This document shows positions 47,890-47,938 of a stretch of 64,000 nt of DNA, piece after piece. Origin of the DNA: Escherichia coli (GTDB lineage Bacteria > Pseudomonadota > Gammaproteobacteria > Enterobacterales > Enterobacteriaceae). Numbering within the stretch: position 1 is the first letter of the stretch; the number at the start of each line of letters is the position of its first letter. The stretch is from assembly GCF_044324875.1 (NCBI RefSeq), contig NZ_CP172185.1; one strand, written 5' to 3'. The notes under the pieces are model-generated. The model was not told the DNA's origin, searched no databases, and saw only the letters and a program-made list of their open reading frames with translations. The translations under genes and the position numbers were made by a program.

Positions 47890-47938
47890 ATACTATAGGG
47901 GGGTATGCATTGACATATAGAATACCCCCCTATAGTAT
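47890..47938 (+). promoter_or_regulatory. frmRAB promoter with perfect 17-bp inverted repeats (FrmR operator) flanking a TTGACA -35 element
   Basis: atactataggggggtat (47890-47906) and atacccccctatagtat (47922-47938) are exact reverse complements; TTGACA at 47910-47915. Confidence 0.7.

Follow-up and report, generated by a model that had tools for sequence, protein, structure and literature searches.

The 53-bp inverted repeat that precedes frmR in the Escherichia coli DNA analysed here (a stretch of 64 kb, hereafter the window) very probably acts as operator for the sigma-70 promoter that drives the autoregulated frmRAB operon. FrmR tetramers would sit on two type-I sites that bracket the -35 hexamer and cover the -10 hexamer, and formaldehyde would release them. 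The E. coli element, the repressor protein and the effector chemistry are already published, and the identification is thus not a discovery. The present analysis establishes the anatomy of the operator, the conservation of its motif and the purifying selection acting on its arms.

Anatomy of the inverted repeat

Direct reading of the sequence confirms that the distal 17-mer ATACTATAGGGGGGTAT is the exact reverse complement of the proximal 17-mer ATACCCCCCTATAGTAT, as an earlier reading made from the sequence alone (the sequence-only reading) had reported. The 15 nt between them (GCATTGACATATAGA) include TTGACA. The length of the arms had been understated, since the repeat finder extends the pairing 2 nt further outward, giving 19-nt arms that are 100% complementary (Table 1). 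The same reading had called the palindrome G6/C6-centred. This description has to be abandoned: the dyad centre of the large repeat is located at 47914, within the -35 hexamer TTGACA, and G6 and C6 each lie inside one arm. The centres of the two sites are 32 bp apart (47898 to 47930), or about 3.05 helical turns, which puts the two E. coli sites on the same helical face.

A chance origin of the repeat can be ruled out, as it is unique in the window and the expected counts are very small. A search of the whole 64 kb for perfect inverted repeats of 14 nt or more whose arms lie at most 60 nt apart yielded this one alone, and perfect 19-nt inverted repeats with a spacer of up to 60 nt are expected about 1.4e-5 times per 64 kb. 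When up to three mismatches are allowed, the 17-mer is found twice, against 0.06 occurrences expected in shuffled sequences. Exact matches to ATAC-N9-GTAT are likewise limited to two in the window, both of them in the arms of the repeat.

Table 1. Coordinates of the operator, promoter and genes of the frm locus in the window
Feature	Position	Strand	Remarks
Distal arm, distal FrmR type-I site (proposed)	47888..47906	.	Core 47890-47906; ends 3 bp upstream of -35
Distal core 17-mer, ATAC-TATAGGGGG-GTAT	47890-47906		G6 at 47898-47903
Spacer GCATTGACATATAGA with -35 hexamer	47907..47921	+	15 nt
-35 hexamer TTGACA	47910..47915	+	Consensus scan, TTGACA-17-TAGTAT, 10/12 matches
Proximal arm, proximal and ancient FrmR type-I site (proposed)	47922..47940	.	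Right half includes -10
Proximal core 17-mer, ATAC-CCCCCTATA-GTAT	47922-47938		C6 at 47925-47930
-10 hexamer TAGTAT	47933..47938	+	17 bp from -35; consensus scan
Overlapping alternative -10, TATAGT	47931-47936		15-bp spacing from -35
Shine-Dalgarno sequence GAGG of frmR	47955..47958	+	6 nt before ATG; direct reading; invariant in Escherichia alleles
frmR, autoregulated repressor	47965..48240	+	91 aa; profile matches, translation
frmA, S-(hydroxymethyl)glutathione dehydrogenase, regulated	48275..49384	+	Annotation, domain matches
frmB/fghA, S-formylglutathione hydrolase, regulated	49477..50310	+	Annotation, domain matches

The frm locus and its promoter

E. coli chromosomes with the annotated gene order yaiO - frmR - frmA - fghA (frmB) match the region at 100% identity. 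The 91-aa product of the first gene downstream of the repeat scores 189 bits against the NCBIfam FrmR equivalog (cut-off 133) and also matches Pfam PF02583, which bears out the earlier assignment of the repeat to the frmRAB promoter. Its translation contains Pro2, Cys35 and His60, as well as K10, R14, R16, R17 and K91, the residues that have been proposed to contact DNA (Denby 2016, PMC5146963). The next two genes, annotated frmA and fghA/frmB, code for a zinc alcohol-dehydrogenase-type protein and an esterase, respectively.

One sigma-70-like site was detected by consensus scan, TTGACA-17 bp-TAGTAT (47910-47938), with its -10 inside the proximal arm. Since about 1.1 such sites are expected in shuffled sequences, the hexamer call alone has no statistical weight. 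The overlap of repressor and promoter put forward in the sequence-only reading agrees with these positions, the distal site ending 3 bp upstream of TTGACA and the proximal one holding the -10. Transcription is predicted to start at approximately 47943-47946; the estimate of +1 near 47943 follows from the placement of the repeat at -29 from the start by Denby 2016 (PMC5146963), where the Pfrm start is itself called 'predicted'.

An in-frame ATG at 47944 would open a 98-aa ORF beginning at the predicted transcription start. Its use would bury the sensory N-terminal Pro2. Of the two start codons, the annotated one at 47965, preceded by GAGG, is the credible choice. On the yaiO side, a G+C-rich hairpin, GCCGCCC...GGGCGGC (47787-47808), is present 10 nt past the stop codon of yaiO. 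No T-run accompanies it and the terminator scan made no call there; it may still terminate yaiO transcription and insulate Pfrm.

Proposed mechanism of repression

The operator would consist of two inverted copies of the 17-bp type-I site of the CsoR/RcnR family, a G/C tract within a short AT-rich dyad, with each copy bound by a disc-shaped FrmR tetramer. The distal site, ending 3 bp upstream of the -35, would fall in the region of an UP element and of the upstream edge of RNA polymerase; the proximal one would cover the promoter spacer together with the -10. FrmR bound in this way would bracket the -35, cover the -10 and keep RNA polymerase off, so that neither a closed nor an open complex could form. 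Formaldehyde generates Pro2-Cys35 methylene bridges across FrmR subunits (Denby 2016, PMC5146963). The bridged repressor, its basic DNA-binding face remodelled, then leaves the DNA, which would permit transcription of frmR, frmA and frmB. As frmR is the first gene of the operon, this arrangement constitutes negative autoregulation. We infer, rather than observe, that FrmR fills both sites in vivo, at what stoichiometry it does so in E. coli, where exactly transcription starts and that the occlusion is steric.

Published evidence for FrmR binding

According to Denby et al. 2016 (Sci Rep 6:38879, PMC5146963, Fig. 6a), the 'large inverted repeat' of the E. coli frmRAB promoter is made up of two tandem type-I sites for FrmR with the motif ATAC-N9-GTAT. 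Bio-layer interferometry with a Pfrm PCR fragment gave a Kd of about 220 nM for EcFrmR, against 3600 nM for non-target DNA, and formaldehyde dissociated the EcFrmR-Pfrm complex (Denby 2016). These BLItz data, obtained with a PCR fragment and fitted to a 1:1 model, do not assign contacts to either or both arms. In Salmonella, the 33-bp frmRAPro probe TTCTGATAGTATACCCCCCTATAGTATATGGAG binds two FrmR tetramers at about 1e-7 M (Osman et al. 2015, 2016, JBC), and FrmR binding to a left-flank mutant of this probe (TTCTGGTTCAACACCCCCC...) is undetectable (Osman et al., JBC). The probe includes ATACCCCCCTATAGTATAT, an exact copy of the proximal 19-mer of the window (47922-47940). As this single-site probe takes two tetramers, a two-site operator may hold two or four.

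A 2024 study (PMC11127321) reported FrmR-dependent repression of promoter J23100 into which ATACN9GTAT sites had been introduced, the first placed upstream of the -35 and the second within the spacer. In the same study, a truncated PfrmR carrying both sites without the upstream DNA lost repression. This suggests extra contacts or an RcnR-like wrapping of flanking DNA, and could also be due to titration of chromosomal FrmR by the multicopy plasmid or to construct effects.

Repression in vivo, specific binding of EcFrmR, release by formaldehyde, the flank requirement (in Salmonella) and repression by transplanted sites are thus all shown in the literature. The checks suggested in the sequence-only reading have consequently been performed for the most part, through tests of EcFrmR binding with and without formaldehyde, of a half-site mutant (in Salmonella) and of transplanted sites. 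However, in the accessible literature we came across no FrmR footprint on E. coli Pfrm and no transcription start mapped there by experiment, and ATACN9GTAT was the only operator detail to be had from reviews and biosensor papers.

Conservation of the operator across frmR loci

We fetched 80 loci of Gamma-, Beta- and Alphaproteobacteria encoding FrmR relatives that are 52-100% identical. An exact ATAC-N9-GTAT is found within 200 nt upstream of frmR at 65 of them, and a site with at most one mismatch upstream of frmR at 75. The 15.9 kb of upstream DNA contains 83 exact sites, compared with five in the remaining 389 kb of these loci, which represents an enrichment of about 405-fold.

The proximal site, in which the -10 lies, is located within the promoter in every case and conserved from Alpha- to Gammaproteobacteria. 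Its consensus over 63 non-redundant loci of Alpha-, Beta- and Gammaproteobacteria is (T/C)ATACTCCCC(T/C)ATAGTATA, that is, ATACT-N7-AGTAT with the C-tract adjoining the left half-site; the ATAC/GTAT flanks are invariant in these loci, although the search was in part built on them. Relative to the commonest form, ATACTCCCCTATAGTAT, the E. coli proximal arm carries a single T-to-C change that converts C4 into C6, and E. albertii retains the T. In enterobacteria and Pasteurellaceae the -10 is supplied by the right half of the proximal site, TATAGTAT. It is read as TATAGT at 17-bp spacing where the gap between the -35 and the site is 8 nt, and likewise at loci with a 17-nt spacer, and as TAGTAT at 17-bp spacing in Escherichia, where this gap is 6 nt.

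Other arrangements were observed in several groups. In the Brucella/Ochrobactrum group and its relatives (loci L042-L081), a conserved AATTGAC abuts a single site, ATACTCCCC(C/T)ATAGTAT, at about -50 to -28 from the frmR start. As TTGAC abuts the site, the operator fills the -35/-10 spacer there, whereas it overlaps the -10 in E. coli. Tatumella loci (L020-L022, L025 and L026) have no separate distal site; their outer half-site is duplicated (ATACTATACT...) at about -56 to -33, forming an extended palindrome, TATACTATA-N6-TATAGTATA, in L020 and 8-nt arms in L021, L022 and L026. At Lysobacter-type loci (L035-L037, L054, L057 and L079) the site ATACTCCCCCCCACTAT ends 1 nt before the protein match begins; the true start codon is probably further downstream there, or the transcript may be leaderless.

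The distal site is restricted to some lineages: Escherichia, Pantoea, the Edwardsiella plasmid, Enterobacter, Providencia, Aeromonas, Serratia, Morganella, Erwinia and Deefgea. An N10 variant of it occurs in Citrobacter, Klebsiella grimontii and Maribrevibacterium loci. Of the 66 rows that have an exact proximal site (the window and 65 loci), 43 lack a second one. The spacer of two-site loci preserves TTGA(C), and exactly 3 nt separate the distal site from TTGA in 18 of 23 such rows, the window included.

One palindrome or two sites

Over the 17-mers, the arms match perfectly in Escherichia, with the core G6/C6, and in the Edwardsiella plasmid, Enterobacter and Morganella, with the core GTGGAG/CTCCAC. 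One arm-to-arm mismatch is found in E. albertii and Aeromonas, two in Pantoea, Providencia rettgeri, Edwardsiella hoshinae and the plasmid pYR4, three in P. rustigianii and four in Serratia. Erwinia carries its two sites as direct instead of inverted repeats. Such mismatches between species indicate that perfect arm-to-arm symmetry is not required. The centre-to-centre distances at two-site loci (32, 33, 34, 35 and 40 bp) also vary, and the helical phase is therefore not conserved. Across loci, conservation applies to the individual ATAC-N9-GTAT units and to their placement against the promoter hexamers, the distal unit being tied to the -35 and the proximal one to the -10, which favours two independently positioned sites over an obligate 53-bp symmetric operator. 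Thus, the comparison supports each 17-bp arm, with its own internal dyad, as the operator unit. The sequence-only reading was right in regarding the element as an FrmR operator, in agreement with the published one (PMC5146963), but not in taking the long palindrome as its unit.

Three explanations could account for perfect long repeats that have a different core in each of two lineages: selection acting on the individual sites, co-evolution with the protein, and concerted evolution of the arms. A more specific scenario appears unlikely to us. In it, an ancient operator with a single FrmR site would have been duplicated in inverted orientation in certain lineages to give the distal arm, and the exact identity of the arms would be maintained by more than independent selection on two sites, through either concerted evolution between them or a symmetric, bridged assembly of FrmR. 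If it were true, such an assembly would wrap the -35 and could set a sharper or tighter switch.

We consider it unlikely that the two arms act as one obligately symmetric 53-bp operator, contacted by a single FrmR assembly (the two faces of one tetramer or a bridged pair), with the -35 wrapped or looped and perfect symmetry required. The engagement of two sites by both faces of one tetramer was raised by Denby 2016 (PMC5146963), and the same-face spacing of the E. coli centres would suit it, as would the recurrence of perfect long repeats with the cores G6/C6 and GTGGAG/CTCCAC. The loss of repression in the truncated promoter that retains both sites also hints at higher-order DNA contacts. However, a single site is sufficient for tight binding in Salmonella, and most taxa are single-site, as the 43 of 66 rows show. 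The unconserved helical phase, the one to four arm mismatches in E. albertii, Aeromonas, Pantoea, Providencia, Edwardsiella hoshinae, Serratia and pYR4, and the direct repeats of Erwinia all argue against an obligate symmetry and for two separate sites.

That the repeat is a nucleic-acid structure rather than a protein site, be it a cruciform, a hairpin that terminates yaiO transcription or a small mobile element's ends, is scarcely credible. The single strand does fold into a 19-bp stem (-18 kcal/mol, z = -5.5), but such a fold is automatic for any perfect inverted repeat. Beyond the stem come TGCATGC (+ strand) and AACACTGG (- strand); neither strand has a T-run there, and no terminator-like sites were called in 47600-48400; a terminator or RNA hairpin was rejected on these grounds. 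A 15-nt loop disfavours cruciform extrusion. Mobile-element ends were rejected as well: arms only 15 nt apart enclose nothing that could be such an element, and the start of the plasmid frm cassette homology at 47887, which could be taken in its favour, is what is expected for a promoter-plus-operon unit. Imperfect arms in many taxa break the stem and leave ATAC-N9-GTAT intact, the signature of a protein site and a strong argument against a DNA or RNA helix.

Variation within Escherichia

Among 12 Escherichia alleles, a small and non-random sample, none of the 19 positions of the distal arm and one of the 19 positions of the proximal arm vary. The difference between the arms (1/38) and the spacer (6/15) is significant (Fisher p = 0.0013), as is that between the arms and all non-arm non-coding positions, of which 27 out of 72 are variable (Fisher p = 2e-5). 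The arms are therefore under purifying selection, the direction of the effect being clear. One Escherichia strain has C7 in place of C6.

Position 47921 of the window is A, a minority K-12-type allele; most Escherichia have C there, which extends the perfect arms to 21 nt and reduces the spacer to 11 nt (ATTGACATATA). The exact 90-nt allele of the window is carried by 977 of 5367 E. coli genomes, and an O16:H48 strain is 100% identical to the window over the 90 nt.

Homology among E. coli lineages breaks approximately 16 nt upstream of the distal arm (window positions ~47855-47872). In some strains, e.g. E. coli RM6067W (L088), the ferric ABC transporter gene fbpC replaces yaiO upstream of frmR. 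Across the junction, TTATTCTCC (47873-47881) is almost constant, with one variable position, 47881. The upstream break probably explains why at least 80% coverage of the 601-nt query was reached in 4281 of 5416 genomes, whereas the operator is present in 5367.

Plasmid-borne frm cassettes

Matches were found in 529 plasmid records, about 489 of which carry an frmR that is 80-90% identical. The 529 plasmids include 197 from Klebsiella and 136 from Enterobacter, and 407 are predicted to be conjugative. The homology between plasmids and the window begins at 47887, one base outside the distal arm. The Edwardsiella plasmid mentioned above (L009) is one example and pYR4 of Yersinia ruckeri (L089) another; the pYR4 cassette adjoins an ISKra4 transposase and an iron-containing alcohol dehydrogenase and keeps the two-site operator. 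FrmR proteins about 90% identical are also encoded in the unrelated genera Maribrevibacterium and Aeromonas. This distribution, together with the plasmid carriage, suggests a mobile formaldehyde-resistance cassette.

Significance

As a discovery the element has little weight, being a textbook-style case of repressor/promoter overlap in a promoter, Pfrm, that is widely used in formaldehyde biosensors. The comparative picture may be modestly useful for Pfrm engineering and for understanding how FrmR and RcnR sites are discriminated. The useful points are the ancient proximal site that doubles as the -10, the optional distal copy 3 nt upstream of the -35, the variable symmetry and spacing, the half-site geometry identical to that of RcnR and the presence of the operator on several hundred mostly conjugative plasmids.

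Comparison with known systems

At the level of sequence, the element has every feature of a type-I site of the CsoR/RcnR family as defined by Denby 2016 (PMC5146963). Its G6 and C6 tracts fall within the 3-8 bp of a type-I G/C tract, each is enclosed by an AT-rich inverted repeat (ATAC...GTAT in each arm, 4+4 bp with a 9-bp gap), and the element overlaps the promoter TTGACA-17-TAGTAT of an operon whose first gene encodes the cognate repressor, FrmR. The FrmR motif ATAC-N9-GTAT is both present in exact form and conserved upstream of frmR orthologues.

The E. coli Pfrm operator of Denby 2016 is the same element, the window carrying the K-12-type allele. A distance of 31 bp between site centres is given there, whereas we count 32, and the arms, 19 nt long in the window, reach 21 nt in most other E. 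coli. The Salmonella frmRAPro of Osman et al. shares the proximal 19-mer with the window and needs its flank for binding. A single C6 site, taking two tetramers, was described and tested in that system; E. coli adds an inverted copy upstream of the -35.

The RcnR operators of E. coli and Salmonella (Iwig & Chivers 2009), as far as they are presented in PMC5146963, are also type-I, recognized by a protein of the same family and present as two sites per promoter, and the E. coli FrmR element resembles the tandem RcnR operator in its mode of action. The G/C tracts of the RcnR sites lie on the same strand and these sites are about 19-20 bp apart, whereas the FrmR sites are inverted and 32 bp apart, and the effector is Ni/Co instead of formaldehyde. 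The RcnR half-sites TACT-N7-AGTA are those of the FrmR consensus of the 63 loci, ATACT-N7-AGTAT, with the same 7-bp gap, and Salmonella rcnRAPro, TACT-C7-AGTA, has half-sites and spacing in common with it. Discrimination between FrmR and RcnR presumably lies in the content of N7, CCCC(T/C)AT as opposed to C6-7, and in the outer A/T. The E. coli arms themselves do not fit the RcnR motif TACT-G6-N-AGTA. They read TACT-ATAGGGG-GGTA, with GGTA rather than AGTA as the inner half-site and an off-centre tract, followed by TATA, that does not abut TACT; an RcnR site was rejected because of these mismatches in half-site and tract position. The CsoR operators of types I and II (Tan et al. 2014), to the extent that PMC5146963 describes them, resemble that of FrmR in being G/C-tract pseudopalindromes that lie over a promoter, are bound by tetramers and are de-repressed by an effector; their flanking sequences and their effector, Cu(I), differ, and many CsoR sites are single.
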